The notes beneath the pieces are model-generated. The model was given only the letters and a program-made list of their open reading frames with translations, searched no databases and had not been told where the DNA came from. 64,000 nucleotides of DNA from Patescibacteria group bacterium (GTDB lineage Bacteria > Patescibacteriota > Gracilibacteria > UM-FILTER-43-11). A program made the position numbers and the translations under genes. Below are positions 12,960 to 47,476 of this stretch, one piece after another. The first letter of the stretch is position 1, and every line of letters starts with the position of its first letter. The stretch spans positions 11,231 to 75,230 of the forward strand of contig JAHJBZ010000066.1 of assembly GCA_018813295.1 (NCBI GenBank). Direction: 5' to 3'.

Positions 12960-13084
12960 AATATTAATTTTTAATTTTTAATTCGAAATTTTTAATCAAT
13001 TTTCATTGTAATAATGTTTAAATTTTTAAAACATTAGAAATTCAGACATTCAATAAAAATTAAAAACTAAAAATTAAAAATTAA

Positions 13085-13894: not shown

Positions 13895-14014
13895 AAGCTA
13901 AACAACAAAAACATTTAGAATTTCGTATTTCAGATTTCGCATTCAAATGCAAAATGCGAATTCAGAAATGCAAAATATTAAGGTTTGTTTTTGTTTTTGT
14001 TTTTATAATAAAGG

Positions 14015-24718: not shown

Positions 24719-24794
24719 AATATTTGATTAGTATTAAGTTTTAAGTCTTAAGGACTAAGCTAGCTTACAGCTTATGACTTAAGACTTATGACTC

Positions 24795-27022: not shown

Positions 27023-27087
27023 AATCCTTTAATTAAGCAATATTATTAAATCAATTTAGGGCATGTTTGTAAATTGGAATTTAGAGT

Positions 27088-27115
27088 TTGTAAATTGTAA
27101 ATTGTAAATTGTAAA
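27088..27115. repeat. Perfect heptamer tandem repeat (ttgtaaa x4)
   Basis: ttgtaaattgtaaattgtaaattgtaaa in the cobO/nrdJ divergent spacer, with an extra copy at 27067-27073. Confidence 0.95.
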
Positions 27116-27161
27116 TTTGCGTTTATTAAAGCCAGAATCCAGCCACAACAATTCACAAAAA

Positions 27162-27209
27162 TATCAACATGTAGTGCCTATAACGTAAGCTTTATACAAG
27201 ATCTTGTGT
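27162..27209. promoter_or_regulatory. Possible tandem NrdR boxes upstream of nrdJ
   Basis: Two 16-mers centred 32 bp apart. The second, atacaagatcttgtgt (27194-27209), contains a perfect 12-bp palindrome acaagatcttgt (27196-27207) and by eye matches 13 of 16 positions of the acaCwAtATaTwGtgt consensus. The first, tatcaacatgtagtgc (27162-27177), matches about 10 of 16. Confidence 0.35.
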
Positions 27210-27397
27210 ATCGTCAAGAACATTTGTTTGACTTCACCCCTCCATTTTTCTAAATTGAAGTACGCATTCAAAAACAAAAAACAGGGATTGCCTCACCCGC
27301 TTTTTTAAAGCCCTCCATATTTCTCACTCCGAGGGAATATAAATAGGTTGAGCTATATCTTTGTGCTCATTACACCCCTAACCAAAACAATTAAAAA

Positions 27398-30300
27398 ATG
27401 AAGAAAACGCACCCATATCATGGCCTAAGCGTCAGTCGCTTTTTCACAGCCGCTGACAAAAACCCTCTAAAAGAGGTTGAATACATAAAACGTGATTGCC
27501 GCATCACCAAACAAGACGGATCAATTGTCTTCGAAATGAAGGATTTTAAGGCACCAAAGAGCTGGTCTCAAAACGCCAGTGACATCATGGCTTCCAAATA
27601 TGCCAGAAAAGCTGGCGTTCCTCAGTACGATGAAGATGGAAAACCTATAAAAGATGAAAGGGGTAATCCTGTTCTGGGTGTAGAAAAGGGTGCAGATCAA
27701 GTTATAGGACGCATGACTGGATGCTGGCGCATGTGGGCAGAAAAACATGGATATTTTGACAGCAAGCAGTCCGCAGATGCATATGAAGCAGAAATGAATT
27801 ATATGCTTATTAACCAAATGTCAGCGCCAAACTCACCACAATGGTTTAATACAGGTCTAAATTCAGCTTACGGAATCAACGGCCCTGCACAAGGTCATTA
27901 CTATGCAGATCCAAAAACTGGAAAAATAAATAAATCAGAAGATGCATACACTCACCCCCAACCACACGCCTGCTTCATTCAATCAGTTAAGGACGACCTA
28001 GTAAATGAAGGTGGAATTATGGATTTATGGATGCGTGAGGCAAGATTATTTAAATATGGTTCAGGTACAGGGTCAAACTTCTCAGCTGTTCGTGGAGAAG
28101 GAGAAAATCTTTCTGGTGGTGGCTTCTCTTCTGGTTTAATGTCATTCCTTAAAATAGGAGATCGTGCAGCCGGTGCAATTAAATCCGGCGGTACAACACG
28201 CCGTGCAGCTAAAATGGTCTGTCTGGACATCGACCACCCTGAAATCGAATCGTTCATCAACTGGAAGGTAGAAGAAGAGAAAAAAGTAGCTGCCCTTATT
28301 GCTGCTGGTTACTCCAGCGATTTCAACGGCGAAGCATATGCAACTGTATCTGGTCAAAACTCAAATAACTCAGTTCGAATTTCAAATAAATTTATGAATG
28401 CAGTCGAGAACGACGAAGATTTTGATCTTACCAGCCGTATAACCGGAAAGGCATTTAAAACCGTCAGTGCTCGAAAAATATGGAAACAGATTGGTTATGC
28501 CGCTTGGGCATGTGCTGATCCAGGCCTTCAATTCGACACTACCATTAACGAATGGCACACCTGCCCAAAAGATGGGCGCATCAACGCATCCAATCCTTGC
28601 AGCGAATATATGTTCTTAGATGACACCGCATGTAATTTGGCATCGTTAAATTTAGAAAAATTCTTTGATGAAAAAACCGATAAATTTAACGTAGAGGCAA
28701 TGCGCCACGCAATACGCCTATGGACAATCACACTTGAAATCAGCGTACTTATGGCTCAATTCCCAAGCTATGAAATTGCAAAAAGGAGCTATGAATACAG
28801 AACTCTAGGCCTTGGTTATGCAAACCTTGGAACAGTGCTAATGCTTCTCAGTGTTCCTTACGATAGCGACGAAGGCCGTACTATAGCTGCTGCACTCACA
28901 TCAATCTTAACCGGAGCTTCATATGAAACCTCAGCTGAAATGGCGGATAGCTATGGTCCATTCGTACGCTATGAACACAACAAAGAGGACATGCTCAGAG
29001 TAATCAGAAACCACAAAAGGGCAACTTACGACGTGCCGGAAGAGGAATACGAAGATTTAGAAGTGAAGCCCGTAGGCCTTAAAAAAGAACATTGTCCTAA
29101 ATATCTTCACGAAGCCTCTTGCAGAGCCTGGGATATGGCGCTTAAAAAAGGAGAAAAATTCGGATTCAGAAACGCGCAAGTTTCCGTAATCGCCCCAACT
29201 GGCACTATTGGCCTATTAATGGATTGCGATACAACCGGAATAGAACCGGACTTCGCATTGGTTAAATTTAAAAAACTCGCTGGTGGCGGATACATGAAAA
29301 TTATCAATCAATCTGTACCGGTAGCTCTTAAAAAATTAAATTATACCACCGAGCAAATACAGGAAATCTTAGATTATATAGTTGGTAAAGGCTCACTTGT
29401 CGAAGCCCCATTCATTAATTGGAAAACTTTAAAGAAAAAGGGATTAAACGAAGACGAACTTATAAAAATCGAAAAAGGTATCAAAAATGCATTCGGAATT
29501 AGCATGGTATTTAACAAATTTATAATCGGTGAGGAAGCTCTTGAACGTCTTGATATCAATCCAGATATTTACAACGACCCTAACTTTAACTTCTTAAAAG
29601 AAATCGGATTCACCGATGAGGAAATTGAAGCTGCTAATGAGTTTGTATGCGGCGCCATGACCATAGAAGGCGCACCTTACATAAAAGAGAAGCATCTGCC
29701 TGTCTTTGATTGTGCTAATAAATGTGGCAGAAAAGGAAAACGTTTCATTGATTACACCGGACACATAAAAATGCTCGGCGCAACTCAGCCATTTGTTTCC
29801 GGTTCTATTTCCAAAACCATTAACATGCCTAACGAAGTTGAGGTAAAAGACGTATTAGAAGCATATGAACTTAGCTGGAAACTCGGATTAAAAGCTAACG
29901 CCATCTATCGTGATGGAAGTAAACTTTCTCAACCATTAAATACATCATCAGAAGACAAGAAAAAGGAAGGTAAAGGGAAAATCGAAATGAGCGAAGTGGA
30001 AATTACCAAGAAACCACTACGCCGACGTCTTAGTAATGAAAGACAGTCAATCACACACAAATTCTCTATCGCAGGACACGAAGGATATTTCACCGTTGGG
30101 CTATACGACGACGGAACCCCTGGAGAATTCTTCATAAAAATGAGCAAAGAAGGCTCCACGCTTTCCGGAATCATGGATAGCCTCGCTCTTTCCATCTCTT
30201 TAAACCTCCAATACGGTGTACCACTAGAAGTTCTCATTTCCAAATTCACTCACTCCAGGTTCGAACCTTCTGGAATGACAACCAACAACGAAATTCCAAT

Positions 30301-30706
30301 CGTAAAATCCATCATGGATTACATAGGCCGCTGGCTTGCTCTTAAATTCTTATCAAAAGATGAAGCAAAGAAATATCACAATGGCGACCTTATAGACCGT
30401 GCGTATAACGAAGGTACAATGTCCATCAAGGGCGTCATGCCAGCTATTAAAAGCACTATCACAATAGGCGAACCACAAGTTAAAGAAAGAGATGATACTG
30501 AAGCAAGGTTAATCCAGGTTCTCGAAAAAGCTAAAATTCAACCAGCTAAAAAAGCAGTAACTGTCGGCGGAGTAAACTCTTATACAACTCCTGTAGCCTA
30601 CCAAAATGACGACGCACCAATGTGCCACAACTGCGGTTCTGTAATGGTGCGTAACGGCAGCTGCTACAAATGTCTGGATTGTGGTGAAACGTCTGGTTGT
30701 AGTTAA
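27398..30706 (+). CDS. nrdJ: Adenosylcobalamin-dependent (class II) ribonucleotide reductase
   Basis: 1102 aa. Motifs include the active-site SNPCSEY, plus GSGTGSNFS, GGTTRRAAKM, VIAPTGTI and PFVSGSISKTINMP. The C-terminal zinc ribbon is CHNCGS..CYKCLDCG. Confidence 0.95.
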   Translation: MKKTHPYHGLSVSRFFTAADKNPLKEVEYIKRDCRITKQDGSIVFEMKDFKAPKSWSQNASDIMASKYARKAGVPQYDEDGKPIKDERGNPVLGVEKGADQVIGRMTGCWRMWAEKHGYFDSKQSADAYEAEMNYMLINQMSAPNSPQWFNTGLNSAYGINGPAQGHYYADPKTGKINKSEDAYTHPQPHACFIQSVKDDLVNEGGIMDLWMREARLFKYGSGTGSNFSAVRGEGENLSGGGFSSGLMSFLKIGDRAAGAIKSGGTTRRAAKMVCLDIDHPEIESFINWKVEEEKKVAALIAAGYSSDFNGEAYATVSGQNSNNSVRISNKFMNAVENDEDFDLTSRITGKAFKTVSARKIWKQIGYAAWACADPGLQFDTTINEWHTCPKDGRINASNPCSEYMFLDDTACNLASLNLEKFFDEKTDKFNVEAMRHAIRLWTITLEISVLMAQFPSYEIAKRSYEYRTLGLGYANLGTVLMLLSVPYDSDEGRTIAAALTSILTGASYETSAEMADSYGPFVRYEHNKEDMLRVIRNHKRATYDVPEEEYEDLEVKPVGLKKEHCPKYLHEASCRAWDMALKKGEKFGFRNAQVSVIAPTGTIGLLMDCDTTGIEPDFALVKFKKLAGGGYMKIINQSVPVALKKLNYTTEQIQEILDYIVGKGSLVEAPFINWKTLKKKGLNEDELIKIEKGIKNAFGISMVFNKFIIGEEALERLDINPDIYNDPNFNFLKEIGFTDEEIEAANEFVCGAMTIEGAPYIKEKHLPVFDCANKCGRKGKRFIDYTGHIKMLGATQPFVSGSISKTINMPNEVEVKDVLEAYELSWKLGLKANAIYRDGSKLSQPLNTSSEDKKKEGKGKIEMSEVEITKKPLRRRLSNERQSITHKFSIAGHEGYFTVGLYDDGTPGEFFIKMSKEGSTLSGIMDSLALSISLNLQYGVPLEVLISKFTHSRFEPSGMTTNNEIPIVKSIMDYIGRWLALKFLSKDEAKKYHNGDLIDRAYNEGTMSIKGVMPAIKSTITIGEPQVKERDDTEARLIQVLEKAKIQPAKKAVTVGGVNSYTTPVAYQNDDAPMCHNCGSVMVRNGSCYKCLDCGETSGCS

Positions 30707-30750
30707 TTTTTCATTCAGACAAAAACAAAGTGTATACAGATACAAAAAAA

Positions 30751-30789
30751 CAAGAGCCTTTCTACAAGATCCCGGTAGAAGGGCTCTTG
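30751..30789 (+). terminator. Terminator hairpin after nrdJ
   Basis: caagagcctttctac / gtagaagggctcttg, with 14 of 15 positions paired. The downstream U-tract is weak. Confidence 0.6.
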
Positions 30790-30854
30790 TGATATATTTG
30801 TAAAGATTCAGGACTCAGCTGTTTCCTGTGTCCTGAATCCTGTATCCTTATGAT

Positions 30855-31619
30855 ATGTACAAAAAAGAATTCCAAATCACAGAGAATGTAAGCAACAACT
30901 CATTTTCATACGACAAGCGCACTAATCCGACAATAACTGTTCCAGATATTGTAGACGGAAGTATTGATGATGTGAAAATCGGAGACAAAATTGTTTTTGA
31001 GGATTTTGATGAAGATGGAAATCTAAAATCATGCACTGGTCTACAAAATTTCATTAGGACAGTTCATCCGACAACAAAAAAACCAGTGATAATTGTTGAT
31101 AATCACAATCATGTTTTTTATTTTTGGTATGAAGCCAGAACAAACGGGCAAATAAATAATGGAGCTACTCTTATACACATCGACCAACACAAAGACATCC
31201 GAAAACCGGCAGAAAAACTAAACAACTCCGACGATTTAAATAGTGTTTTCAAATACACCAACTCTATCTTAAACGTCGGAAACTACATCCCCCCTGCGAT
31301 GGAAGAAGGGCTTGTTAGAAAAGTAATTCCGATCACCAGTGAATCAGAGATAAATAAAAACACCCCCGAAGGCGCGCCGGTCCCCCCTGATAAGGGGGTT
31401 AGGGGGTTTGCGCGCCTTCGGGGAACCGAATCATCGTTAATCGTTAACATTGATCTCGACTTCTGGGCACCGGAAATGGATTATATAGATAATAAATTAA
31501 AAATCGACACTACAAAAAAATGGATGGAAAAAGCCGACCTAATCACAATCGCAACCAGCCCGTTTTTCATAGATCAAGAATTAGCATTAAAAGTTTTAAA
31601 GGAATTACTTTATAATTAG
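30855..31619 (+). CDS. UPF0489-like (arginase/deacetylase-fold-like) protein carrying an in-frame palindromic insertion
   Basis: 254 aa. VIIVDNHNHVFYFWYEA, LIHIDQHKDIRKP and NIDLDFW resemble UPF0489 motifs. This assignment has low confidence. Confidence 0.6.
   Translation: MYKKEFQITENVSNNSFSYDKRTNPTITVPDIVDGSIDDVKIGDKIVFEDFDEDGNLKSCTGLQNFIRTVHPTTKKPVIIVDNHNHVFYFWYEARTNGQINNGATLIHIDQHKDIRKPAEKLNNSDDLNSVFKYTNSILNVGNYIPPAMEEGLVRKVIPITSESEINKNTPEGAPVPPDKGVRGFARLRGTESSLIVNIDLDFWAPEMDYIDNKLKIDTTKKWMEKADLITIATSPFFIDQELALKVLKELLYN
31364..31423. repeat. 60-bp GC-rich palindromic element inserted in frame in a coding sequence
   Basis: A perfect 14-bp inverted repeat, ccccgaaggcgcgc (31364-31377) / gcgcgccttcgggg (31410-31423), encloses a cccccctgataaggggg hairpin. 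The 20-mer gataagggggttagggggtt (31389-31408) is identical to 39342-39361. Confidence 0.85.
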
Positions 31620-31620
31620 C

Positions 31621-31664
31621 TTAATCCTTAAGACTTAATCCTTAAGACTTAATCCTTAAGACTT
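31621..31664. repeat. 14-bp tandem repeat (ttaatccttaagac x3) abutting a start codon
   Basis: Three perfect copies end 2 nt before ATG 31665. The same word family occurs at 24740-24794 and 39373-39400. Confidence 0.95.
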
Positions 31665-33155
31665 ATGAAATTCCCATTCACAAAAAACGAAATCTTTTTC
31701 GCCGCAGTTTACTTTGTACAAGCAGCTGTCGGAATTTCCGCCCTCGCTCAATTCTTATTTACGCGCAATGAACTCGGTTTGAGTTTTATTGAACTTGGGA
31801 TATTGGCAGCACTTCCAACAATCTCCTGGAGCATAAAACCGATTTATGGATTTTTAACGGATTTAGTACCAATTTACGGATACAGACGCAGGCCATATTT
31901 GCATATAATGCCGCTAATAACAATGCTCAGCTGGCTTTGGATTTGGCAATTTGCAGACTCTTTTATCAGTTATGCCATTCCAATTATGATTGCGAATATC
32001 GGACTCGGATTTACCGATGTAATTGCAGACGGACTGGTTGTTCAGCAATCAGATGAAAAAACTGCCGGCCGATATCAGTCCATCTGTTGGGGGTCGCTAA
32101 CCGTTGGCGCAATTATCACAACATTCCTTTCCGGGCTTTTAATCGGACGAGATATTGTCAGCATAAAAGGCATGTTCCTGATCACTGCATTAATACCACT
32201 TATCACATTTACACTTTCTTTCTTTATTAAAGAAAGACGTATATCCGATCGTTCTGAACTTAAAACCCATAAAGCAATAAGTCCAAGTTATATTTATACA
32301 GCTGTGTTAGCTTTTATTGTAACAATAGTTTTACTTTCTCCATATGAAGGCCAAAACATGGCCACTGCATCCTTTGGTGTCATAGGAATTTGGTTCGTAT
32401 GGTTTGGCGGATACTTCAAACACCTTATGGATATTAAAATTATCGGCAAAAGTATATTTGCGGCCGCAATATTTATATTCTTCTGGCGTTTCACGCCAAG
32501 TTTCGGTGCACCATGGTCGGACTACCTCCTCAATCAAGTTGGCGTAGACCAGGAAACTTTTGGTTACTTTGGGGTGGTTAGTTATATAGGTTGGTTAATT
32601 GGATCAATATTATTTGCGAAATATTTTGATAAATTTAACCTAAAAAAAGTTTTACTTTGGACAATTGTATTGAGTGCCATTTTAGGGCTCAGCCAACTGG
32701 GACTTACAAAGATTGAACTTGGAAATGCGATTGGCAGTAACGTAATTATTAAATACGTAGGAGCTGTAATCTCAGCCCCTGTATTCCTTATCGCACAAGG
32801 AAGAGATTTTTGGACTCACTTGATGCAGTACGATGGTTTAATTTTCCTGAATTTCTTCCTCGACTTCTTCCTTGGAATTTTATATATGATTTCATTCCTC
32901 GCACTTCTAAAATTTGTTGCACTTAGCACACCAAGGAATCTGGAAGGAACAAACTTTGCCGTATTCGCATCCATTATGAACTTTGGACTTGTATTTGGAT
33001 CGATTAGCGGAGGATACATTTACGAACATATTCAACATGGTATGTTTGGAATAAACGGTCTTCAAATCACCGTACTCCTCGGCGCCATAACCTCCCTCAT
33101 CGCCCTAATTGTTTTGCCATGGATTAAGACAGATCATATGGCACACGAATCTTAA
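31665..33155 (+). CDS. MFS transporter, folate-biopterin transporter (BT1)-like
   Basis: 496 aa, about 12 TM helices. The N-terminal segment LPTISWSIKPIYGFLTDLVPIYGYRRRPYL is typical of the BT1/FBT family. Confidence 0.7.
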   Translation: MKFPFTKNEIFFAAVYFVQAAVGISALAQFLFTRNELGLSFIELGILAALPTISWSIKPIYGFLTDLVPIYGYRRRPYLHIMPLITMLSWLWIWQFADSFISYAIPIMIANIGLGFTDVIADGLVVQQSDEKTAGRYQSICWGSLTVGAIITTFLSGLLIGRDIVSIKGMFLITALIPLITFTLSFFIKERRISDRSELKTHKAISPSYIYTAVLAFIVTIVLLSPYEGQNMATASFGVIGIWFVWFGGYFKHLMDIKIIGKSIFAAAIFIFFWRFTPSFGAPWSDYLLNQVGVDQETFGYFGVVSYIGWLIGSILFAKYFDKFNLKKVLLWTIVLSAILGLSQLGLTKIELGNAIGSNVIIKYVGAVISAPVFLIAQGRDFWTHLMQYDGLIFLNFFLDFFLGILYMISFLALLKFVALSTPRNLEGTNFAVFASIMNFGLVFGSISGGYIYEHIQHGMFGINGLQITVLLGAITSLIALIVLPWIKTDHMAHES

Positions 33156-33156
33156 A

Positions 33157-33236
33157 ACGAATAGTAGCTCGTATTGTAGTCCACTATTCGAGCCACAACT
33201 TGAGCCACCATTCGAGCCATCCGCCGCAGGCGGGGA
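33157..33236. repeat. Dispersed 12-mer mirror-repeat spacer (cgaatagtagct / gagccacaa family)
   Basis: acgaatagtagctcgtattgtagtccactattcgagccacaacttgagccaccattcgagccatccgccgcaggcgg. It is related to 47382-47476 and 54523-54568. Confidence 0.85.
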
Positions 33237-33238
33237 TC

Positions 33239-34006
33239 TTATTTATCCCCCAATCTCTTTAAAGCTCTCAAAGCCTCGATCGGCATCATCCAGATTGTTG
33301 TATTTGATTGATCGGAAGAAAGATCATTAATAGTTTGCAATGTGCGAAGATGTAAGGCGCCATCTGCCTCAGAAAGAGTCTTGGCAGCTTTTTTCATATT
33401 CTCGGCAGCAGCCACCTCACCTTCTGCCTTAATAATAACAGCTCTTTTTTCACGTTCAGCTTCGGCCTCTTTCGCCATTGTTCTTTTCATGTTATCGGGC
33501 AAACCGATATCCTTTAATTCCACAGCTTCAACTTTTATCCCCCAGGGATCACTGGCTTTATCTACAATTATTTGAATACGACCAGCAATCTCATCACGAT
33601 TGCGAAGAAGCTCATCAAGCGTAGTCTCACCAACTGCATTACGCATCGTAGTTTGAGCAAGCTGACTAACTGCAAAATAAAAATTTTCAACCTCGATAAT
33701 AGATTTTGCAGCATCACTAACCTTATAATAGATAACCGCATTAATACGAATGGAAATGTTATCTTTTGTAATTGCCTCTTGATCAGGTACATCAACTACC
33801 TTTGTACGAAGATCAACCTTAATCATTCTCTGAAAAACAGGAATAACAATTCGCCAACCGGGATTTTTCATTCCGGAATATTTTCCTAACGTAAACATCA
33901 CACCTCGCTGATATTCATTTACCTGCTTGATCAAAATCACAATTAAAATAATGAGGGGCACAGCCAATGTACTCAGCATAGAAAAGAGAAATGCAAAATC
34001 ATCCAT
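33239..34006 (-). CDS. SPFH/Band 7 (stomatin/prohibitin-like) membrane protein
   Basis: 255 aa with an N-terminal TM helix. SPFH core (VVDVPDQEAITKDNISIRINAVIYYKV..) and an EAEAEREKRAVIIKAEGE coiled coil. Confidence 0.9.
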   Translation of the reverse strand: MDDFAFLFSMLSTLAVPLIILIVILIKQVNEYQRGVMFTLGKYSGMKNPGWRIVIPVFQRMIKVDLRTKVVDVPDQEAITKDNISIRINAVIYYKVSDAAKSIIEVENFYFAVSQLAQTTMRNAVGETTLDELLRNRDEIAGRIQIIVDKASDPWGIKVEAVELKDIGLPDNMKRTMAKEAEAEREKRAVIIKAEGEVAAAENMKKAAKTLSEADGALHLRTLQTINDLSSDQSNTTIWMMPIEALRALKRLGDK

Positions 34007-34129
34007 GATAATAAAATTAAAAAATAAACTGCTTCTCAGTTTAACGAATCTTTTTTTTAAAAGCGAGAAGAGATTTGACGATTATTTAATAAGCTATATC
34101 ATTAAATAGTAAATAATAGATTAATATCC

Positions 34130-35761
34130 ATGCCTCAATGCACAACTTGCTCCAATTCATTTGAAACCCGAGATGCAGATCGTACGTTCTACAAAAAATT
34201 TGATGCACCGGATCCCAAAAAATGCCCGGACTGCCGTTTGCAGCAACGATTAAATTTTCGTAATGAACGTACTCTCTACAAACGTACCAGTAATCTTTCC
34301 GGAAAAAGTATGATCTCCATTTATTCTCCGGAAAGCAAATATCAAATATATAGTACTGACGAATGGTGGAGTGACAAATGGGATGGCCTGAACTACGGAC
34401 GAGAATTTAATTTCAGCAGGCCTTTCTTTGAGCAGTTCCAAGATTTACTATTAAGAATACCTCGCATTACCCTTTTTAATGTAAACCCAACCAACAGTGA
34501 ATACTGCCAACAGGCTTATAACAACAAAGGATGTCATTTATGTATGGTGGTAACAGATTGTGAAGATTGCATGTATATCTCTCATACCAACCACGCTAAA
34601 GATTCCTTTGATTCAACATACACGCATCACATGGAATTATGTTATGAATGCTTAGATAGCAACCAGCTATATGGATGTATAGAATGCCAGAGTTGCCAGG
34701 GCTCAAACGGACTTATGTATTGTTACGATTGTATTGGATGCAGAGATTGTTTTGGTAGCTGGGGACTGCGTAACAAAGAAAATTACATTTTTAATAAACG
34801 CTATTCAAAAGAAGAATATAAAGAAAAAATAAATTCACTTGAATTAGGTAAATCACCTAATTATCTAGAATACAAAAAATACTTTCAGGATTTGATGAAA
34901 ACTCGGGTACACCGGGCTAGCCGAAATATTAATATTTTTGACTCAACTGGAAACTACCTGATCAATGCGCAAAACTGTCATGAATGTTTTGATTCATTTC
35001 AAATTCAAGACTGCGCGTATTGCACATGGATTTTTGAAAGCAATAACTGCCAGGATGTATATGGACTTGGTGGTAGTGGATGGGTATATAACTGTCTTGG
35101 AAATGAGAAGGTGAACAATGTAGCTTTCAATACTTTTGTTTCTGATGGTGGAGATATTTATTACAGCGATCTTTGTTTTTATTCTATGAATTTATTTGGC
35201 TGTGCTGGATTAAGGAACAAAAAACATTGTATTTTTAATAAGCAATATTCACCGGAAGAATATGAAAAATTAAGAGCTCAGATAATCGAACATATGAAAA
35301 AAACAGGTGAATGGGGTGAGTTTTTCCCGGTTTCACTTTCACCTTTTGCATACAACGAGACCGCCGCTCAAAATTATTTCCCATTAACAAAAGAGGAGGC
35401 AGAAAAACAGGGATTTGCATGGAAAACTTCAAAGGAAATTGATCAAAAAGAGCAAATATATAAAATACCGGAAGATATTAAAGACGTTCAGGATGACATC
35501 ACTGAAAATATTGTGGTTTGCTCATGCAATAAGCGTTATCAAATCGATCCAGTGGAATTAAAGTTTTATAAAGAAAAGAATATTCCTATTCCACTCAAAT
35601 GTCATGACTGCCGTTACGCAGATCGTTTAAAGCTGAGAAACCCACGAAAACTATACAAACGAAATTGTGCCAAATGTAATGCCGAAATTCAGACAACTTA
35701 TGCGCCGGATAGACCGGAAGTGATATACTGCGAGCAGTGCTATTTAAAAGAAGTGGATTAA
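34130..35761 (+). CDS. Cys-rich zinc-ribbon/repeat protein, paralog A (543 aa)
   Basis: N- and C-terminal CxxC...FYxK...P.P..CP.CR...R...RN.R.LYKR modules. The middle is internally duplicated Cys-rich repeats, each ending GLRNK..(I/C)(F/I).NK.YS.EEYE. It also carries the conserved GEWGEFFP.S.SPFAYNET.AQ.YFP motif. Confidence 0.8.
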   Translation: MPQCTTCSNSFETRDADRTFYKKFDAPDPKKCPDCRLQQRLNFRNERTLYKRTSNLSGKSMISIYSPESKYQIYSTDEWWSDKWDGLNYGREFNFSRPFFEQFQDLLLRIPRITLFNVNPTNSEYCQQAYNNKGCHLCMVVTDCEDCMYISHTNHAKDSFDSTYTHHMELCYECLDSNQLYGCIECQSCQGSNGLMYCYDCIGCRDCFGSWGLRNKENYIFNKRYSKEEYKEKINSLELGKSPNYLEYKKYFQDLMKTRVHRASRNINIFDSTGNYLINAQNCHECFDSFQIQDCAYCTWIFESNNCQDVYGLGGSGWVYNCLGNEKVNNVAFNTFVSDGGDIYYSDLCFYSMNLFGCAGLRNKKHCIFNKQYSPEEYEKLRAQIIEHMKKTGEWGEFFPVSLSPFAYNETAAQNYFPLTKEEAEKQGFAWKTSKEIDQKEQIYKIPEDIKDVQDDITENIVVCSCNKRYQIDPVELKFYKEKNIPIPLKCHDCRYADRLKLRNPRKLYKRNCAKCNAEIQTTYAPDRPEVIYCEQCYLKEVD

Positions 35762-35844
35762 TTTCTGCCTACGGCGGAGACCTAATTGGTGACCTAATAG
35801 GTGTACACCAATAAGGCCACCAATTAGGCCACCCATTAGAAATT
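35762..35844. repeat. 12-mer mirror-repeat leader (gacctaattggt / accaattaggcc)
   Basis: gacctaattggt gacctaataggt gt-ac accaataaggcc accaattaggcc acccattag, ending 6 nt before ATG 35845. Confidence 0.85.
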
Positions 35845-37476
35845 ATGAAAAACTGTAAAAACTGCACCACCGAATTCGAAATAGCAGAACAGGATCGTAA
35901 ATATTACGAAAAAATTAACGTGCCCGAACCTACACACTGCCCAACATGCCGCCAACAACGGAGGTATGCAATTCGCAATGAAAGAAATCTATACAAAAGA
36001 AAATGTGGCATGTGTAATAAGGAATTGGTATCGATGTATTCCCCAGACAAACCATTCCCTATTTACTGCCCAAGCTGTTGGTGGGAGGGTGATTGGCATG
36101 GGACTAGCTACGCACAGGAATTTGATTTTAGTAGACCCTTTTTTGATCAGTTTAGAGATTTACAAAACAAAGTTCCACGAATCAGTTTGTATTTAGTTAA
36201 TTCGGAAAATTGTGACTACTGCAACTTTGTTGGTGACTGCAAAAATTGTTATTTAACGTTCGGATCTGTTTATTCAGAAGATTGTTTATACGGTTCTGCA
36301 TACTATTCAAAAAACTGCATGGACAATTTGGTGACCAGAGAATGTGAACTATGTTATGAGTGCACGGACAGCAGAAAATTATATAACTGTTTGTATTGCC
36401 AGGACTGCTATCATTCAGATCATCTGCTTTTTTGTTATGACCTGCAGGGGTGTAGTGAGTGTATTGCATGTGCGGGGCTAAGAAATAAAAAATATCACAT
36501 CGAAAATAAGCCTTATTCAAAAGAGGAATATGAAGCAATCAAATCTAAAATAAATTTTTGCAGCTCAAAGCAATTAGAAGGTGTACATGAGCAGCTAAAG
36601 AAGATGAAATTGGAAATTCCACATCATTTTATGCCAAATAGCAACGTACAAAACGTAAGCGGTACTCATATTTACAATTCAAAAAACACCCACCACTCAT
36701 TTTATGTAGATAGATGTGAAGACTGTGCATACTGCATGCAGGTTGTAGACTTAAAAGATTGCTACGACAACAATTACACCGAAGAAAATGAATTGTGTTA
36801 TGAATATCTTGGAATGTATGGGGCGAAAAATACTTTTTACTCAACTTTCTCCAGACATTCATACGATGTTTTTTATTCTGAATACACTATTAACGCCAAA
36901 AATTTATTTGGATGTAGCAATATTCACAAAAAGGACTTTTGTATTTTGAACAAGCCTTACTCAGAAGAAGAATATAAAGAACTTGTTCCAAAAATAATCG
37001 ACCATATGAAGGAAGCCGGTGAATGGGGAGAATTTTTTCCTATAAGCCACTCACCATTCGCATACAACGAAACAGTTGCGCAAGAATATTTCCCAATGGA
37101 AAAGGGGGGAGCCACTGGCAAGGGTTACAAGTGGAAAGACCCAGACCAAAAAGAATGCCAACCTCAAACAACCGAAGTTCCTGTAGAGATTAAAGATGTT
37201 CAGGATTCAATTTTAAATGAAGTTTTAGCTTGCAGCGACTGCAAAAAAAATTACAAAATAATTTCGCAGGAATTAAAATTTTATCGCAATATACACCTGC
37301 CTATTCCAAAAAAATGCCCCGACTGCAGACATAAAAACAGACTCTCGCTCCGCAATCCTCGCAAACTATTCAGCAGGCAGTGTAATAAGTGTAATACAGA
37401 TATTCAGACAACTTATGCACCAGACAGACCGGAGAAAGTTTATTGTGAAAAATGCTATCACGAATCGGTATACTAA
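35845..37476 (+). CDS. Cys-rich zinc-ribbon/repeat protein, paralog B (543 aa)
   Basis: Same length and architecture as 34130-35761, roughly 40% identical by eye. It retains the second N-terminal ribbon (RKCGMCN...YCPSCWW) that is degenerate in paralog A. Confidence 0.8.
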   Translation: MKNCKNCTTEFEIAEQDRKYYEKINVPEPTHCPTCRQQRRYAIRNERNLYKRKCGMCNKELVSMYSPDKPFPIYCPSCWWEGDWHGTSYAQEFDFSRPFFDQFRDLQNKVPRISLYLVNSENCDYCNFVGDCKNCYLTFGSVYSEDCLYGSAYYSKNCMDNLVTRECELCYECTDSRKLYNCLYCQDCYHSDHLLFCYDLQGCSECIACAGLRNKKYHIENKPYSKEEYEAIKSKINFCSSKQLEGVHEQLKKMKLEIPHHFMPNSNVQNVSGTHIYNSKNTHHSFYVDRCEDCAYCMQVVDLKDCYDNNYTEENELCYEYLGMYGAKNTFYSTFSRHSYDVFYSEYTINAKNLFGCSNIHKKDFCILNKPYSEEEYKELVPKIIDHMKEAGEWGEFFPISHSPFAYNETVAQEYFPMEKGGATGKGYKWKDPDQKECQPQTTEVPVEIKDVQDSILNEVLACSDCKKNYKIISQELKFYRNIHLPIPKKCPDCRHKNRLSLRNPRKLFSRQCNKCNTDIQTTYAPDRPEKVYCEKCYHESVY

Positions 37477-37564
37477 TGGATAAACTAATTGTAGGACTAA
37501 TGGTCGGACTAATCGATAAGTTCATCAATAGTACATCAATTAGTCCACCAATAAGTCCCCCAAT
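37477..37564. repeat. 12-mer mirror-repeat leader (ggactaatggtc / tcaattagtcca)
   Basis: aaactaattgta ggactaatggtc ggactaatcgat ... atcaatagtaca tcaattagtcca ccaataagtccc, ending directly before ATG 37565. Confidence 0.85.
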
Positions 37565-39295
37565 ATGAACTTTGTTACAACCCCAAACACCACCAAACAA
37601 ATTGACCTCCTTCTAATCAATCCCGACTTCTCAAAAAATGAGTTAGGTGTTACATCAGCTCCGGAAAATCATTTAGGACTTAATAGGTTGGCGGGGTATT
37701 TGGCAAAAAAGGGACACAAGTGTGCAGTGATCGACACAACTGGACGTGAGAGCGGAACAAGTGGACCGGAAAATTTAGGTAAATGGATCGCAGACCACGC
37801 GCAGGAATACAAATCAATCGGATTCCATACAAATTCCTGGAACATAAATCATATTCTCCGTGCACTTAACGAGTGCAGATCTGCATTGAAAAACAAAAAA
37901 GTTTTATTTGGAGGACCGCTTGCAAGTTCTGAGCCAAAAAAAATGACTGAGCTTTTAATGGAGTCCGGACTCCAAAACATTGGAGTTGTGGAAGGACTCG
38001 GGGAAAAGATTACAGACGAAATTTTGAATAAAAATAACCTGTCGGACGTAAATGGACTCTGGTGTTTTGAGAATGGAAAGTTTAAAGAGGGTGAAAAAGT
38101 GGCCCTAACACAAGAGGAATTCGAAGGCACCCCATTTCTTGATCTTGAATACAATACTTTTTACCAAAATTACTACAAACCGGTAATCGAAAGTGGTGAT
38201 TTGGATAATTTCAGCATGGAAATTATTTTCGGTTCACAGGGGCTGGATGTAAACCGCGGCTGCCCTTTCAAATGCACCTATTGTTCGGTACCGCAATATG
38301 AAAGAAAGCTAATTACCTACTCACCAAAAAGGGTTGTTGATGAATTGGAATACCTAGCCAAAGAAGCAGGGTTTTTCATGTTCACTTTCACCAACTCAAA
38401 CATAATGTTTTATGACCAGTTATGGATTCAGGAGTTCTGCCGGGAAGTTATCGGGAGAGGAATGAACGATTATATAAATTGGACCGCATATCATCACCCA
38501 AGCATCATTGCGAAACTCCCGTTATCCGATTTCAACCTAATGAGAAAAGCTGGATCGGATAATATTGTATTCGGAATACAGAGTTTTGAAGAAAAAATCT
38601 TAAAACTTTTTATGCGGCCGCTGAATACCAGAGAGCTAACAGAAGTAATCAGAGAAAAAACCTTAAACTCCAAACAATATTTAACCGTAGACTACATAAC
38701 AGGCGTACCAGGGGAAGATTTGGACGTGATAGAAGATGCATTTAACTACTTTATCGACAACGAAATTGAATGTCGCAACTATCAGCTGAAGTTTTACCCA
38801 AATACAAAACTGCCAACTATGGATTTGGACATGTCGGATCATGATTTGGTACCAATAACAGGAGAACTTGCACCGGAATTAAATGCATATGCAATAGTTT
38901 CAAAGCATCCAAACCCAAAAGCAGCAAAATTGGACGGGATGTTACGTGAGGCAAATGAAGATTTAACAAAAAACCGCCCACCAAGACTTGGAAAATATAT
39001 TGTCGACTCCGCGGAAACCGCAAAAATGCTGTACGAAAAAGAAATTCCAGACAATCCAAACATTCCGGATAAAGTAAAACGCGCCATGCGCATCGCACTT
39101 CACGAAATGCTCAATCCAAAAAAACGTGAGCAGACTTTGGAAGGGCTGGATCCAATGGAAATGATGAAAAAGGTAATAATGGCAGGAAACGACGCCCCGC
39201 CAATGGTTAAAGCAATGCAGGAGAAATTGAAAAATGAATTAGGAGAAGGAAAATTTAAGGAATTAAGAGATAAATACGGACAAAATGGTATTTAA
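37565..39295 (+). CDS. B12-binding-domain radical SAM enzyme (class B-like)
   Basis: 576 aa. N-terminal Rossmann-like segment (LLLINPDF...LAGYLAKKGHKCAVIDT). Radical SAM cluster motif GCPFKCTYCSV (CxxxCxxC). Confidence 0.85.
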   Translation: MNFVTTPNTTKQIDLLLINPDFSKNELGVTSAPENHLGLNRLAGYLAKKGHKCAVIDTTGRESGTSGPENLGKWIADHAQEYKSIGFHTNSWNINHILRALNECRSALKNKKVLFGGPLASSEPKKMTELLMESGLQNIGVVEGLGEKITDEILNKNNLSDVNGLWCFENGKFKEGEKVALTQEEFEGTPFLDLEYNTFYQNYYKPVIESGDLDNFSMEIIFGSQGLDVNRGCPFKCTYCSVPQYERKLITYSPKRVVDELEYLAKEAGFFMFTFTNSNIMFYDQLWIQEFCREVIGRGMNDYINWTAYHHPSIIAKLPLSDFNLMRKAGSDNIVFGIQSFEEKILKLFMRPLNTRELTEVIREKTLNSKQYLTVDYITGVPGEDLDVIEDAFNYFIDNEIECRNYQLKFYPNTKLPTMDLDMSDHDLVPITGELAPELNAYAIVSKHPNPKAAKLDGMLREANEDLTKNRPPRLGKYIVDSAETAKMLYEKEIPDNPNIPDKVKRAMRIALHEMLNPKKREQTLEGLDPMEMMKKVIMAGNDAPPMVKAMQEKLKNELGEGKFKELRDKYGQNGI

Positions 39296-39341
39296 CAAAA
39301 AGGCGGGAATGGTTCCCCCTGCCTGCCCCGCAACGGCGGTG

Positions 39342-39361
39342 GATAAGGGGGTTAGGGGGTT
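39342..39361. repeat. Intergenic copy of the 20-mer found inside the 31364-31423 insertion
   Basis: gataagggggttagggggtt is identical to 31389-31408. It is embedded in a GC-rich patch (ccccctgcctgccccgcaacggcggtg). Confidence 0.9.
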
Positions 39362-39394
39362 CTCACCTTTTGCTTAATTCTTAAGACTTACTCC

Positions 39395-40579
39395 TTAAGA
39401 CTTTTTTCCCGCTTCCAATTCCTCCATTACATATTCTGTCACCTCATCAGCAATCTTTCCTTTAATATAACCATAAGCTTTTAGATCTATCTTAACCGCA
39501 GCAAGCTGAATAGCAGGAGATGGATTATCAATCAATTCAATTAAAAGTGGATTTTGTTTAAGTGCTTCTAATACAACCCTTTCATCTGACTCCATACCCA
39601 TTGCAAGAATATGCCTAAGTGCACCCACATCATTAGAAACAGCAGCAAACTGATTTAATGCATCTGCATCTCGGAAATGTTTAATTAATGATCCATTTTT
39701 ACCAAGCAGCTCATATAGCTCTACCGGTGACAATGAAAAATTATTGATAAGAGGAATTGCATCTAAGTTTTTTTCAAGCGCTTTAGCTTGGACATCTTTT
39801 GATGGATTTTCAATAAGCTCAACCAATCTCCAATCCTTCTCAACCGCAAAAAGTTGAACTGATTGCTCTGGGGTGATTCCGGCCTCAAGAATAACTCTGA
39901 ACATTTGAGGATTCTTCTCAACTGCAAGGAGTTGAACCGCTGTTGACGGAGTTACTACGGAACTAACAAGAGTTTCAAATGCCGCTATATCCTTCTTAAC
40001 TAATGCAATTTGAACTGGTTCTTCTGGAATTATTCCGACACCAACAATAGCCTCAAATGCCTCCACACCATGCTGTTCAACTGCAGCTTTTTGAGCTTTT
40101 TCTGATGGGATAATCTCCATTGCAATAATACGCCTAAGCGCTTCCAATCCACTTTCCTGGTTAGAGGAAAGGCTAACGGCAACAACTTGCAAATCTTCGT
40201 CTTGGGCTAAATCACCAGCATATTTAATCGCCCTTCCATCTTGCCCAACTGCTTCACGTATACGTTTCTCCGATGGAGTTATTCCCATTCTAATGATTTG
40301 ACCAAGAAAAGCTCCATTTGCCTCAATCACAGCATCTTGACCTGCCTCCGATATATTCTGCATACTTTTTACAATTCTACCCCTACTTAATTCAATAAGT
40401 TCAATCATTCTGTCGTCAGGTACTTCTACACCTGTAGCCAGTACATTTTTCAGTGCAGTACGATCCGCAGCCGGAGCTGACTGCTCTGGTTGACCTGATC
40501 TAGCTGCCTGACCTGATTGATCCTGCTTATTGTCACCATCTTCTGCTTGTGGTCTTGTTACTGTTCTTTTTATAGCCAT
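39395..40579 (-). CDS. Tandem helical-repeat protein (HEAT/DUF4116-like periodicity)
   Basis: 394 aa. The N-terminal ~45 residues are disordered and Q/A/G-rich. About nine ~36-aa repeats follow with a recurring (I/T)P(S/E)E..Q.(A/L)AV motif. The stop codon lies inside a 14-mer repeat unit. Confidence 0.7.
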   Translation of the reverse strand: MAIKRTVTRPQAEDGDNKQDQSGQAARSGQPEQSAPAADRTALKNVLATGVEVPDDRMIELIELSRGRIVKSMQNISEAGQDAVIEANGAFLGQIIRMGITPSEKRIREAVGQDGRAIKYAGDLAQDEDLQVVAVSLSSNQESGLEALRRIIAMEIIPSEKAQKAAVEQHGVEAFEAIVGVGIIPEEPVQIALVKKDIAAFETLVSSVVTPSTAVQLLAVEKNPQMFRVILEAGITPEQSVQLFAVEKDWRLVELIENPSKDVQAKALEKNLDAIPLINNFSLSPVELYELLGKNGSLIKHFRDADALNQFAAVSNDVGALRHILAMGMESDERVVLEALKQNPLLIELIDNPSPAIQLAAVKIDLKAYGYIKGKIADEVTEYVMEELEAGKKS

Positions 40580-40854
40580 TTTCTTAAAAATTAATAATTA
40601 AATGTCTTCTTGCTGTGAATTGGCAAGAAAAAGACATCCTGCCAAACGTGGAGGGTATTTTATTACATATTTTTAACCTTGTCAACCCTATTTTAAACAA
40701 TTTTAATTAAATTTGTTAAATCCCCTTTTTCCCGCTAAACTATCTACCAGACGCATAATAAGATTATTTCGACTATTAAGACTATTACGACTATTAGGAA
40801 ATCCTAAAAGTCCTAAAAGTCGTAAAATTCTTAAAAGTCCTAACTAAAATACCA

Positions 40855-42768
40855 ATGGAAATTCCTAAAATAGGACAACCCCTAAATGACGAACAAATCA
40901 ATTTTTTAAATGTGCTAACAAAAAGCTGCCGTAATGCAATAGTGGCAATGGTTGCAAATGCGCAGTCCGGCCACCCCGGCGGCGCCTGCTCATCAATTGA
41001 TTATCTTGCAACAATTTATGCATTCATTATCAGCCAGACGGGTGAGGATGTAGTTGTAAGCAATGGCCACGTTTCCGCAGCTGTATACAGCATTTTGGCG
41101 GAAATGGGATATATTCCAAGAGAAGAAGTGATTCAGGATTTTAGAAAAGTAGGAAAAATTTACGAAGGGCATATTACAAGACATGTAAGGGGTGTGAATT
41201 ACGGAACAGGCCCGCTGGGGGTTGGTGTTTCTGTAGCAACCGGTTTTGCAATTGCAGAAAAGCTAAAAAAGACCGATCGCCGGGTTTTTGCAATGGCCGG
41301 AGACGGCGAATGTGATGAAGGGCAGGTTTACGAAATGATGCACTTTGCAAATAAGTATAAATTAGACAATTACACCTTATTTATTGATTATAATGCGGTT
41401 CAGCTTACAGATAGTTTAGATAAAACTATGCCAATTAATCTGAAGGAAATTTTTGAATCAGCAAATTGGAACGTTTTGGAATGTGATGGACATAATTTTA
41501 GTGAAATTTGGGATGCTGTTGGAAAAAGTTATGAGTCAGATAAGCCGACAATGATTCTCGGCCATACAATTATGGGTAAAGGGGTTACTTTTATGGAACC
41601 GGACGGAGCTGATCACAAATCCACTTGGCATGGCATACCTCCAAAACCAGAACAAGCGGAAAGTGAACTTGCAGGCCCACTTAAAATGACAGATGAAGAA
41701 GTAAGTTTGTTAAATGAATTCAGAAAACAGGTTAAATGGGAACCGCCTAAAAACCATGAAATTGAAAACCTCACTCCCATCCCCGGATTTAAAATAGGAG
41801 AGCCAAATATAATCGAACCAGGTGAAAAAGTAGACTGTCGTGGAGCCTACGGAAAGGCGCTTTTAGACCTTGCAAAACTAAATGACAATGTTGTTGCTAT
41901 GACAGCAGACCTGGGAGGATCTGTAAAAACAACAGTTATGGGCAAGGAGTTCCCGGAAAGAGTATTTGAAGTAGGAATTGCAGAGCAACACATGGTTAGC
42001 TTTGCTGGAGGATTAAGTTTGCGAAATATGATTCCATTCGCATCAACTTTTGGTGTGTTTATGACAAGCAGGGCAAAAGATCAGGCTAGACTGAATGATA
42101 TAAATGAAACAAATGTAAAAATGGTATCCACACATTGTGGACTTTCCGTAGGAGAAGATGGGCCAACTCACCAAACGGTGGATGATATGGGCTCTTTTTC
42201 TGGCTTCTTTAACACAGATATATTAGAACCAGCAGATGCGAATCAAACTGACCATATCATTAGATTTATAGCCGCACATTATGGAAATTTTTATGTACGC
42301 ATGGGGCGACATAAGTTCGAAGTGCTCACAAAGGAAGATGGAACACCTTTTTATGATGACAAATACAAATTCGAACTTGGGAAGGCGGATGTAATCAGGA
42401 AAGGTGATCAGGTTACAGTTGTTGCTGTAGGATCAATGGTGAACATTGCATTAGATGTAGCGGAAAAATTGAAAGGGGAAATCTCGGTTGAACTTATTGC
42501 AATGAGCTCATTTAGCAAAATTGATATAGATACACTGGTTACATCACTCGAAAAAACCGGAAAAATTATAACAATAGAAGATCATAATCCTAAATCTGGA
42601 TGGGCTAATCAAATTAACAGTGTAATAGCTCAGGAAGGGCTTTCTGTAATTATCAACAATCTTGCGGTACGAAAGTATCAGCTCTCCGGCAAACCACTAG
42701 AGCTTTACGATCAGGCTGGAATCGGCCAATCAGATTTAGAAAAAGCAATCCTTGCAATTACTTCTTAA
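40855..42768 (+). CDS. tkt: Transketolase
   Basis: 637 aa. Motifs SGHPGG, GDGECDEGQVYE and HCGLSVGEDGPTHQ. Confidence 0.95.
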   Translation: MEIPKIGQPLNDEQINFLNVLTKSCRNAIVAMVANAQSGHPGGACSSIDYLATIYAFIISQTGEDVVVSNGHVSAAVYSILAEMGYIPREEVIQDFRKVGKIYEGHITRHVRGVNYGTGPLGVGVSVATGFAIAEKLKKTDRRVFAMAGDGECDEGQVYEMMHFANKYKLDNYTLFIDYNAVQLTDSLDKTMPINLKEIFESANWNVLECDGHNFSEIWDAVGKSYESDKPTMILGHTIMGKGVTFMEPDGADHKSTWHGIPPKPEQAESELAGPLKMTDEEVSLLNEFRKQVKWEPPKNHEIENLTPIPGFKIGEPNIIEPGEKVDCRGAYGKALLDLAKLNDNVVAMTADLGGSVKTTVMGKEFPERVFEVGIAEQHMVSFAGGLSLRNMIPFASTFGVFMTSRAKDQARLNDINETNVKMVSTHCGLSVGEDGPTHQTVDDMGSFSGFFNTDILEPADANQTDHIIRFIAAHYGNFYVRMGRHKFEVLTKEDGTPFYDDKYKFELGKADVIRKGDQVTVVAVGSMVNIALDVAEKLKGEISVELIAMSSFSKIDIDTLVTSLEKTGKIITIEDHNPKSGWANQINSVIAQEGLSVIINNLAVRKYQLSGKPLELYDQAGIGQSDLEKAILAITS

Positions 42769-44138: not shown

Positions 44139-44282
44139 TTGTCTGAACTGTGATTTATGTGATTGAAATGATTTTTTTGATTTGTATTTTCGTAGAGACG
44201 CATTGCAATGCGTCTCTACGAATGTTTTATATATAAAAATCATATCCATCACTGTAATCATGAGAAATCACAGTTCAGACAA
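44139..44282. mobile_element. MITE-like element, copy A (144 bp)
   Basis: Termini are ttgtctgaactgtgatt (44139-44155) and aatcacagttcagacaa (44266-44282), a perfect 17-bp TIR. The central hairpin is cgtagagacgcattgcaatgcgtctctacg. It starts directly after a TAA stop. Confidence 0.8.
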
Positions 44283-47381: not shown

Positions 47382-47476
47382 ACGAATAGTAGCTCGAATA
47401 GTAGCTCAAGTTGTGGCTCGAATGGTGGACCACAATACGAGCAACTATCCGAGCCACAATACGAGCCACCATCCGA
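47382..47476. repeat. Dispersed 12-mer mirror-repeat spacer (cgaatagtagct / cacaatacgagc family)
   Basis: cgaatagtagct cgaatagtagct caagttgtggct cgaatggtggac | cacaatacgagc aactatccgagc cacaatacgagc caccatccgata. The halves are about 70% reverse-complementary. Confidence 0.9.

Follow-up and report, generated by a model that had tools for sequence, protein, structure and literature searches.

The window analysed here is a 64,000-nucleotide stretch of a Patescibacteria genome (contig JAHJBZ010000066.1, positions 11,231 to 75,230; Gracilibacteria), in which two adjacent genes on the plus strand, here referred to as A (34130-35761) and B (35845-37476), encode proteins of equal length (543 aa) that contain 35 and 41 Cys, respectively. 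They are followed on the same strand by a gene for a 576-aa radical S-adenosylmethionine (SAM) protein with a B12-binding-like domain (37565-39295). The three open reading frames (ORFs) and the equal length of A and B had been noted in an initial annotation made from the sequence, and were confirmed at these positions; the identity between A and B, earlier put at about 40% by eye, is 44% over the full length by alignment (E=2e-166), and the two are true paralogs. Both belong, as old paralogs, to a very large and as yet unnamed family of soluble proteins, here referred to as family F, that is essentially confined to Patescibacteria (the candidate phyla radiation, CPR). The radical SAM gene, assessed using Pfam, NCBIfam, and synteny tests, falls outside the conserved gene set of this family. 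Family F is judged to fall outside the known kinds of system, and is new in the sense of being uncharacterised.

Relatives of A and B were found in at least 8000 clusters at 90% identity, all described as 'hypothetical' or 'zinc-ribbon', in Peregrinibacteria, Gracilibacteria, and other Patescibacteria. A profile search of 1.84 billion representatives retrieved 5105 clusters with E<1e-3, 2259 of them with E<1e-30, and the genome titles of 79 loci carrying F genes (F loci) were almost all those of Patescibacteria. A has its own orthologues in Peregrinibacteria (82-55% identity), and the orthologues of B reach up to 76% identity. In phage genomes, F was not found, except for a 76-aa match to an isolated ribbon. 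No transmembrane or hydrophobic segments were predicted in F, and no publications on the family, on its gene arrays, or on a link between F and orphan type IV coupling proteins (T4CPs) were found in the literature searched. Typical F arrays, accompanied by the ATPase gene described below, were also seen on contigs of metagenome-assembled genomes labelled Woesearchaeota, Nitrospirota, and Burkholderiales (L075, L079, and L081); these are most likely mis-binned CPR contigs and not a true occurrence outside Patescibacteria.

F proteins share one layout, in which a basic double zinc ribbon is followed by two homologous, narrow, and acidic beta-solenoids with a helical hairpin between them, then by an invariant GEWGEFFP...SPFAYNET block, and by a more basic double zinc ribbon at the C-terminus. 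The zinc-ribbon modules at both ends and the internally duplicated core, which had been recognised in the initial annotation, were borne out by local alignment against shuffled sequences: homology was found between the N- and C-terminal 85-aa modules of each protein (z=18 for A, 26 for B) and between the two halves of the core (z=14-15). In A, the N-terminal double treble-clef module (34130-34384) consists of a ribbon 1 with four Cys (Cys4), followed by a basic RNER helix and by a ribbon 2 that has no Cys, as delineated by alignment, Cys columns, and the z-score of 18. Its core (34466-35245; beta-solenoid 1, helical hairpin, beta-solenoid 2) was assigned from the internal repeat (z=15), the alignment to the AlphaFold2 (AF2) model of B, and a period of 3 in Cys/Ser, and its C-terminal double treble-clef module (35504-35758) is basic, carries an RNPR motif and a CxxC-x17-CxxC pattern, and matches zf_Tbcl_2 (E=1.8e-4). 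In B, the N-terminal module (35845-36099) is matched by Pfam zf_Tbcl on residues 3-40 and modelled with a predicted local distance difference test (pLDDT) of 87-95. The core of B (36181-36957) contains beta-solenoid 1 (approximately aa 113-222), the helical hairpin (226-257), and beta-solenoid 2 (259-371) in AF2 model mc849c2819dfb, and is followed by the C-terminal double treble-clef module (37219-37473), which matches zf_Tbcl_2 on residues 506-540 and for which the PDB sequence similarity is LIM-like only. All four ribbons of B have Cys4.

The GEWGEFFP..SPFAYNET.AQ.YFP block was indeed found in both proteins, as GEWGEFFPVSLSPFAYNETAAQNYFP in A (35306-35383) and as GEWGEFFPISHSPFAYNETVAQEYFP in B (37018-37095), and is the most conserved segment of family F (mean column entropy 0.95 bits). 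Each half of the core had been described as ending in a GLRNK-type motif, which holds in general; both solenoids of A end in GLRNKxxxIFNKxYSxEEY, but the second copy in B reads NIHKK. The absence of all four Cys from the second N-terminal ribbon of A was confirmed by the alignment and by Cys column counts. Its earlier interpretation as subfunctionalisation is misleading, since most family members do not have the full Cys set in this ribbon. Cys4 is present in ribbon 2 of only approximately 19% of 150 members, so that the Cys-less ribbon 2 of A represents the majority state and not a special event. Ribbon 3 has Cys4 in approximately 50% of these members, and the Cys positions of ribbons 1 and 4 are occupied in approximately 89-99%. 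Judging from these columns, the outermost ribbons (1 and 4) are the only ones in which Cys4 is kept throughout the family; both carry two CxxC pairs, which would allow each to bind one zinc.

Among named domains, only the terminal ribbons found counterparts. The N-terminus of B scored 29.2 bits against Pfam zf_Tbcl (PF13451; cut-off 24) and that of A 12.8 bits, whereas zf_Tbcl_2 (PF23477; cut-off 27) gave 21.6 bits in A and 18.6 bits in B; nevertheless, of 38 F members scanned, 35 showed the latter model at E<=0.1 (lowest E 4.4e-7). The four terminal ribbons thus resemble zf_Tbcl, zf_Tbcl_2, and the TIGR04272 'CxxC-x17-CxxC' model, all of which describe probable treble-clef ribbons, and the F ribbons are probably members of, or at least related to, fingers of this type. 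These models cover fingers of approximately 40 aa with an uncharacterised role, whereas in F two fingers and an Arg-rich helix form a module of 75-85 aa, a copy of this module lies at either end of a protein of approximately 550 aa, and ribbons 2 and 3 have no Cys in many members. In a PDB sequence-profile search, the sole match was that of the last ribbon to LIM-domain CRP proteins (E=0.006), and the second finger of LIM domains ranks among the closest known counterparts of the F ribbons. The core of 300 aa had no match in Pfam, NCBIfam, or PADLOC, in agreement with the initial annotation, which could assign no named domain to it; PHROGs yielded a weak match of the solenoid to phrog_15341 (function not known). 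Longer F proteins (P0200 of 808 aa, P0202, and P0149) were screened as fusions, and no extra domains were found.

The initial annotation had posed the question of whether the Cys-rich core forms a beta-helix or a treble-clef array. An AF2 model of B built from a 38-sequence alignment was unreliable (core pLDDT<50); the model used here was built from 150 sequences (pLDDT 88.5, predicted template-modelling score 0.88), and places two narrow beta-solenoids between the zinc-ribbon modules, with a further helix between solenoid 2 and the conserved block. The core is thus predicted to be made of beta-solenoids, and treble-clef fingers are predicted only in the terminal modules. DSSP assigned 12-residue coils at positions 328-367 of this model, the coil geometry being read from the DSSP strings together with the sequence periodicity. 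A Foldseek search of the 150-sequence model against the PDB gave nothing significant (best E=0.08, probability 0.23, TM 0.1-0.2), and the weak top matches were all beta-helix proteins (enzymes). Against BFVD there was likewise nothing significant, with only local zinc-ribbon matches to phage 'putative zinc-ribbon domain proteins'.

The Tenebrio molitor antifreeze protein is a narrow beta-helix with 12-residue coils in which Cys, Ser, or Ala occupies every third position. F resembles such narrow 12-residue beta-helices in predicted coil length and in the period of 3 of its small residues, a likeness in geometry only; the antifreeze protein itself is not among the listed Foldseek matches. F further differs from narrow beta-helices in being predicted to be cytoplasmic, in having two solenoids capped by GLRNK..IFNK..EEY motifs, and in carrying zinc-ribbon modules. 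The left-handed beta-helix enzymes, e.g., GlmU and gamma-carbonic anhydrase, showed no significant structural match to F, and neither Hexapep nor pentapeptide Pfam models matched any of 38 members, the periodicity of F being 3 and 12 and not 5 or 6.

F proteins contain 26-47 Cys each, with a CxxCxxC-like spacing in the core. Cys/Ser occupancy follows a strict period of 3 in both solenoids (autocorrelation 0.6 at lag 3), and the core Cys columns contain 40-95% Cys across the 150 members, with Ser as the commonest substitute at most of them. Because exchange of Cys for Ser is frequent, sets of obligate metal ligands in the core are disfavoured, and the solenoid Cys/Ser are most simply read from the model as small, inward-facing residues of coils of approximately 12 residues. 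It is formally possible that a column of metal ions is held inside the solenoid by stacked inward-facing Cys (approximately 3 per 12-residue coil), an architecture for which we know of no precedent. The mean net charge is +2.9 in the N-terminal module and +6.9 in the C-terminal module, and -5.5 and -4.3 in the two solenoids. The invariant residues are R36, R44, N45, Q102, N122, N221, N369, and R495, among which N221 and N369 are the Asn of the IFNK/ILNK motif closing each solenoid, and N122 is the Asn of the NSEN motif that opens solenoid 1.

Genes of family F commonly occur in co-directional tandem arrays. Two or more copies are present in 65 of 87 loci, with a maximum of 11 copies within 22 kb (L068), and the spacer between F genes has a median length of 16 nt. 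The paralogs within a locus share a median identity of 41.6% (maximum 59.9%), and 205 of 231 F members have their closest relative in a different locus. Since the paralogs are diverged within a locus and have their closest relatives elsewhere, the arrays are sets of old paralogs that have been maintained, and did not arise by recent amplification. Array members correspond one to one by position only in part among close relatives, and such orthology is not clear between distant CPR lineages.

Clustering of the flanking ORFs in 82 non-redundant loci revealed just two recurrent neighbours, namely a TrmB-like winged helix-turn-helix protein (approximately 252 aa) and an ATPase (approximately 747 aa). 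The former is present in 36 of the 82 loci, at times in several copies per array (e.g., L053), and its gene was found directly upstream of an F gene 33 times, in 28 of these in divergent orientation. The ATPase is present in 24 of the 82 loci and lies directly adjacent to an F gene in 19, usually co-directionally at the 3' end; in L091, a distance of 1 nt separates the stop codon of the last F gene from the start of the ATPase gene. When loci were sampled from the ATPase side, five of seven carried 2-5 F genes. The ATPase starts with a DUF8128 domain (approximately 300 aa), followed by matches to T4SS-DNA_transf, TrwB_AAD_bind, TraG-D_C, and DUF87; it also matches TraD, VirD4-like, CD1115, and CedD models. 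No transmembrane segment was predicted (highest 19-residue Kyte-Doolittle hydropathy <1.6). Neither a relaxase nor VirB4 was observed beside the ATPase in the examined loci, and there was no VirB4 cluster among the recurrent neighbours. It thus shares T4CP-type domains with the orphan VirD4-like T4CPs of Patescibacteria (PMC12102498) and is akin to the TraG-like ATPases SPO1 gp27.4, phage G gp156, and 0305phi8-36 orf201 (PMC3357382), but differs from known coupling proteins in having DUF8128 at the N-terminus instead of a membrane anchor. In Patescibacteria, 5,713 VirD4-like T4CPs have been counted in 2,918 genomes, only 148 of them near virB4, and the authors leave room for an exaptation to some different function (PMC12102498).

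Full-length relatives of the ATPase (L044 18492-20735 and 26 homologues) were found in large Bacillus phages, which unexpectedly connects CPR bacteria with phages of Firmicutes. Phage G gp156 was matched at E=3e-46 with 88% coverage and phrog_5156 at E=3e-72, and SPO1 gp27.4, for which a role as coupling ATPase in an operon for phage DNA translocation was earlier proposed (PMC3357382), is also a relative.

Taken together, we assign a probability of roughly 0.45 to the picture in which F proteins are zinc-stabilised, nucleic-acid- or polyanion-binding adaptors or substrates of an orphan coupling-protein ATPase, with most of the uncertainty lying in its functional part, which we infer. F proteins would act as zinc-stabilised scaffolds or adaptors, in which the terminal modules, both rich in Arg and marked by RNER and RNPR motifs, may hold a polyanionic ligand, most likely nucleic acid, and paralog-specific surfaces of the solenoids and hairpin would give each F protein its specificity. 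They would work with the orphan coupling-protein-like ATPase, either as specificity adaptors or as substrates, and TrmB-like regulators would turn sub-arrays on or off. Binding of nucleic acid had been listed as one option in the initial annotation, and is plausible because the terminal modules are basic. A more far-reaching version is speculative and seems rather doubtful to us: F may supply the partners so far missing for the soluble, orphan VirD4-like ATPases found in almost every member of the Patescibacteria, the two forming a machine specific to this lineage in which the hexameric ATPase works on many F proteins or is directed by them and each paralog has its own nucleic-acid or host target, F perhaps being exported to the host, or else a metal column may run in the solenoid.

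Several points weigh against the picture of F proteins as nucleic-acid-binding adaptors or substrates of the ATPase. No homologue of known function was found for F, and nucleic-acid binding is suggested only by charge and by what treble-clef and LIM-like fingers generally do. The ATPase and TrmB-like genes are both missing from the window and from L087, the locus most closely related to it. Approximately 70% of the F loci have no ATPase within 10 kb, and two of the seven ATPase loci have no F gene; the partnership would therefore have to be facultative or to operate in trans. In addition, the F loci are the 80 best tblastn matches, i.e., the best-scoring ones and not a random sample, and ORFs were called using code 11, so that arrays of code 25 genomes look fragmented, e.g., in L047.

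A first alternative takes F proteins to be secreted effectors, which would be recruited by the VirD4-like ATPase via their Arg-rich C-terminal module and delivered by the Patescibacteria type IV secretion system (T4SS) into a host bacterium. The T4CP-like gene directly beside F arrays, the strongly basic C-terminal module (+6.9), and the many diverged paralogs per genome are in line with this. The Bep effectors of Bartonella are encoded as tandem paralogs beside virD4. As in F, diverged paralogs are thus lined up beside a coupling-protein gene and have positively charged C-terminal regions, but F has no BID or FIC domains, its orthologues are highly conserved, and its coupling protein is soluble. 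Orthologue identities of 55-82% are unlike those of fast-evolving effectors, the ATPase has no transmembrane anchor, and 2-4 structural zinc sites and rigid solenoids are ill-suited to secretion that depends on unfolding. The Patescibacteria T4SS appears to be specialised for non-conjugation roles, which would favour an effector function, but its T4CPs are rarely encoded near virB4 and the gene is dispensable for epibiotic growth in one species (PMC12102498). On balance, a role as effectors is unlikely.

It is also improbable that F proteins are enzymes or small-molecule binders in which GEWGEFFP/SPFAYNET and the conserved Asn, Asp, and Arg form an active site, with paralogs differing in substrate, control by ligand-sensing TrmB, and incidental adjacency of the ATPase. 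The highly conserved acidic-aromatic block and the eight invariant residues listed above could be read in this way, as could the several TrmB-like regulators per array in loci such as L053, the TrmB family including sugar sensors. However, no catalytic domain was found by Pfam, NCBIfam, PDB sequence search, or Foldseek, and the positions of N221, N369, and N122 at the ends or start of the solenoids fit structural residues of a repeat motif better.

Quite improbable is a defence island against phages or mobile elements, in which F arrays, a HerA/FtsK-superfamily ATPase, and regulators would act together with F paralogs as sensors. Its appeal comes from the match of the ATPase to PADLOC mad8 (E=3.7e-15) and, more weakly, to HerA models, and from toxin-antitoxin modules and ORF6N genes that lie repeatedly in or beside the arrays. 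A and B had no match among the PADLOC defence models, however, and the recurrent neighbours include nothing that could be recognised as an effector (e.g., a nuclease, Sir2, or TIR); the arrays are old and conserved and not patchy, and F is missing from phage genomes apart from the isolated zinc ribbon. The inserted genes themselves comprise toxin-antitoxin pairs (ParE/Phd, HigB/RHH, and MazF-like with RHH) and ORF6N/KilA-N-type genes, repeatedly situated inside F arrays or at their edges (L001 11323-11864 and 13572-14153; L087 14430-14900; also L041, L058, L085, L033, L086, and others), and selfish modules of this sort seem to land preferentially in F arrays. Genes of the thioredoxin, DsbA, or DsbD type were observed beside some arrays or ATPase genes (L003 11559-12146; L089 12749-13246; L092 1314-2513), which is suggestive for proteins with approximately 38 Cys, but thioredoxin/DsbA was not recurrent in the clustering of 183 adjacent ORFs.

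The initial annotation had grouped the Cys-rich pair with the neighbouring radical SAM gene as a possible functional set, and had named conservation of their synteny in relatives as a test beforehand. The radical SAM protein carries CPFKCTYC at aa 233-240 and matches PF04055 (Radical_SAM) at 57.1 bits (cut-off 29.5). Its earlier description as class-B-like stands with respect to these features, but the PF02310 B12-binding match of 26.7 bits is below the cut-off of 32.1. It shares the CxxxCxxC motif, the Radical_SAM domain, and a putative N-terminal B12-binding-like domain with class B (cobalamin-dependent) radical SAM enzymes, but all NCBIfam equivalogs were far below their cut-offs (best 63.5 bits against 360), none of the named radical SAM equivalogs being matched, and its conserved neighbours are a BT1 transporter and a transketolase and not F. 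No radical SAM homologue was found within 10 kb of an F member in the 86 F-anchored loci of other genomes, nor in any of the seven ATPase-anchored loci. L087 has orthologues of A (72%) and B (76%) in the order CobO, ribonucleotide reductase (RNR), BT1, A … B … radical SAM, transketolase; the orthologues of A and B are spaced by approximately 3.4 kb that contain other genes, and the B orthologue is followed by a minus-strand gene of 128 aa and a VanY-domain gene before the radical SAM gene is reached. In L088, a single locus obtained by a metagenome scan from the radical SAM side, whose radical SAM orthologue is closer still (81% identical protein), the order is RNR, BT1, radical SAM, and transketolase, without any F gene.

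Since synteny is not kept in these relatives, the functional set is rejected: the radical SAM gene is a chance neighbour and a member of a B12-themed neighbourhood, into which A and B were inserted in this lineage, as follows from the intervening genes in L087 and from L088 having no F. It is therefore highly improbable that F serves as a metal or Fe-S scaffold, or as a substrate, whose maturation or modification depends on the B12-dependent radical SAM enzyme encoded next to it. This model has in its favour the adjacency of three co-directional genes, with no terminator-like site between them in the window, and the many Cys with CxxCxxC-like core spacing, but it also conflicts with the frequent Ser in core Cys columns and with the lack of any match to Fer4 or other Fe-S Pfam models in A, B, and 36 other members. 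The B12-themed neighbourhood itself (L088 1-7760; L087; window 26456-42768) comprises a CobO adenosyltransferase, a class II (B12) RNR, a BT1-family major facilitator superfamily transporter, the B12-radical SAM protein, and transketolase; the presence of CobO and the class II RNR in the window had been recorded earlier and was verified. Partners or substrates of the radical SAM enzyme are to be sought in this set, e.g., the folate/biopterin-type transporter.

Within the window, A, B, and the radical SAM gene may well be co-transcribed, since a sigma-70-like promoter match (TTGACG-16-TATCAT; 10 of 12 matches in a consensus scan, which is weak evidence) lies upstream of A on the plus strand at 34075-34102 and the scan revealed no terminator-like sites between the three genes; this arrangement is not conserved elsewhere. 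Each of the three genes had been thought to be preceded by a leader of its own consisting of 12-mer mirror repeats. These are in fact inverted (reverse-complement) repeats of tandem units of approximately 12 nt, and they precede B and the radical SAM gene but not A. Between A and B, an inverted repeat of tandem 12-nt units (ACCTAATTGGTG... / ...CACCAATTAGGC; 35776-35833) has arms of 29 nt that are 83% complementary, and the RNA of the spacer folds at -33.2 kcal/mol (z -5.8). The repeat of 12-nt units between B and the radical SAM gene (GGACTAATGGTC... / ...ATCAATTAGTCC; 37488-37564) abuts the radical SAM start codon, and this spacer folds at -23.6 kcal/mol (z -4.6). The 12-mer pattern is absent upstream of A, where the fold is weak (z -2.3).

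Hairpins of the same design, each of a different sequence, recur in five or more further spacers of the window as well as in CPR loci unrelated to this one, so that they represent a general spacer feature and not regulators of this gene set; the idea of leaders specific to A, B, and the radical SAM gene was dismissed, the same design being found throughout the genome and in distant CPR genomes. The hairpin spacers of the window are 12971-13084, 13900-13996, 24730-24793, 35776-35833, 37488-37564, 40771-40839, 44151-44260, 47394-47476, and 63492-63543, and hairpin-filled spacers were also seen in L001, L003, and L004. Their arms are tandem copies of a unit of 8-12 nt, they nearly fill the spacer (fold z -4.6 to -6.4), and they often stop 10-16 nt before the next start codon. 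As the hairpin at 40771-40839 sits in a divergent promoter region, before transketolase, the hairpins are not simply terminators; RNA processing or stability, or a by-product of replication slippage, are possibilities.

The radical SAM gene is separated from a convergent DUF4116 gene by a stretch rich in G+C (CCCCCTGCCTGCCCCGCAACGGCGG...GGGGGTTAGGGGG; 39296-39394), in a genome that otherwise has 37% GC; this stretch may be a bidirectional terminator, but it has no canonical T-run on the plus strand. The DUF4116-like gene (39395-40579, minus strand) encodes a 394-aa protein in which a low-complexity N-terminus rich in Q, A, and G precedes many DUF4116-like repeats; the gene is not present at the equivalent position of L087 and L088, and may be another lineage-specific insertion.

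With the radical SAM 'maturase' pairing removed as a false lead, family F provides a concrete target within the CPR 'dark matter'. Its predicted combination of a double narrow solenoid with a Cys/Ser core and four treble-clef fingers has no relative in the PDB or BFVD, and is worth an experimental structure. The link between F and the DUF8128-VirD4-like ATPase bears on the role of the thousands of T4CP homologues that are encoded away from any T4SS. Patescibacteria have genomes of approximately 1 Mb, and some devote at least 20 kb (approximately 2%) to F arrays whose paralogs have long been kept; arrays of this size and persistence imply an important, lineage-defining function.

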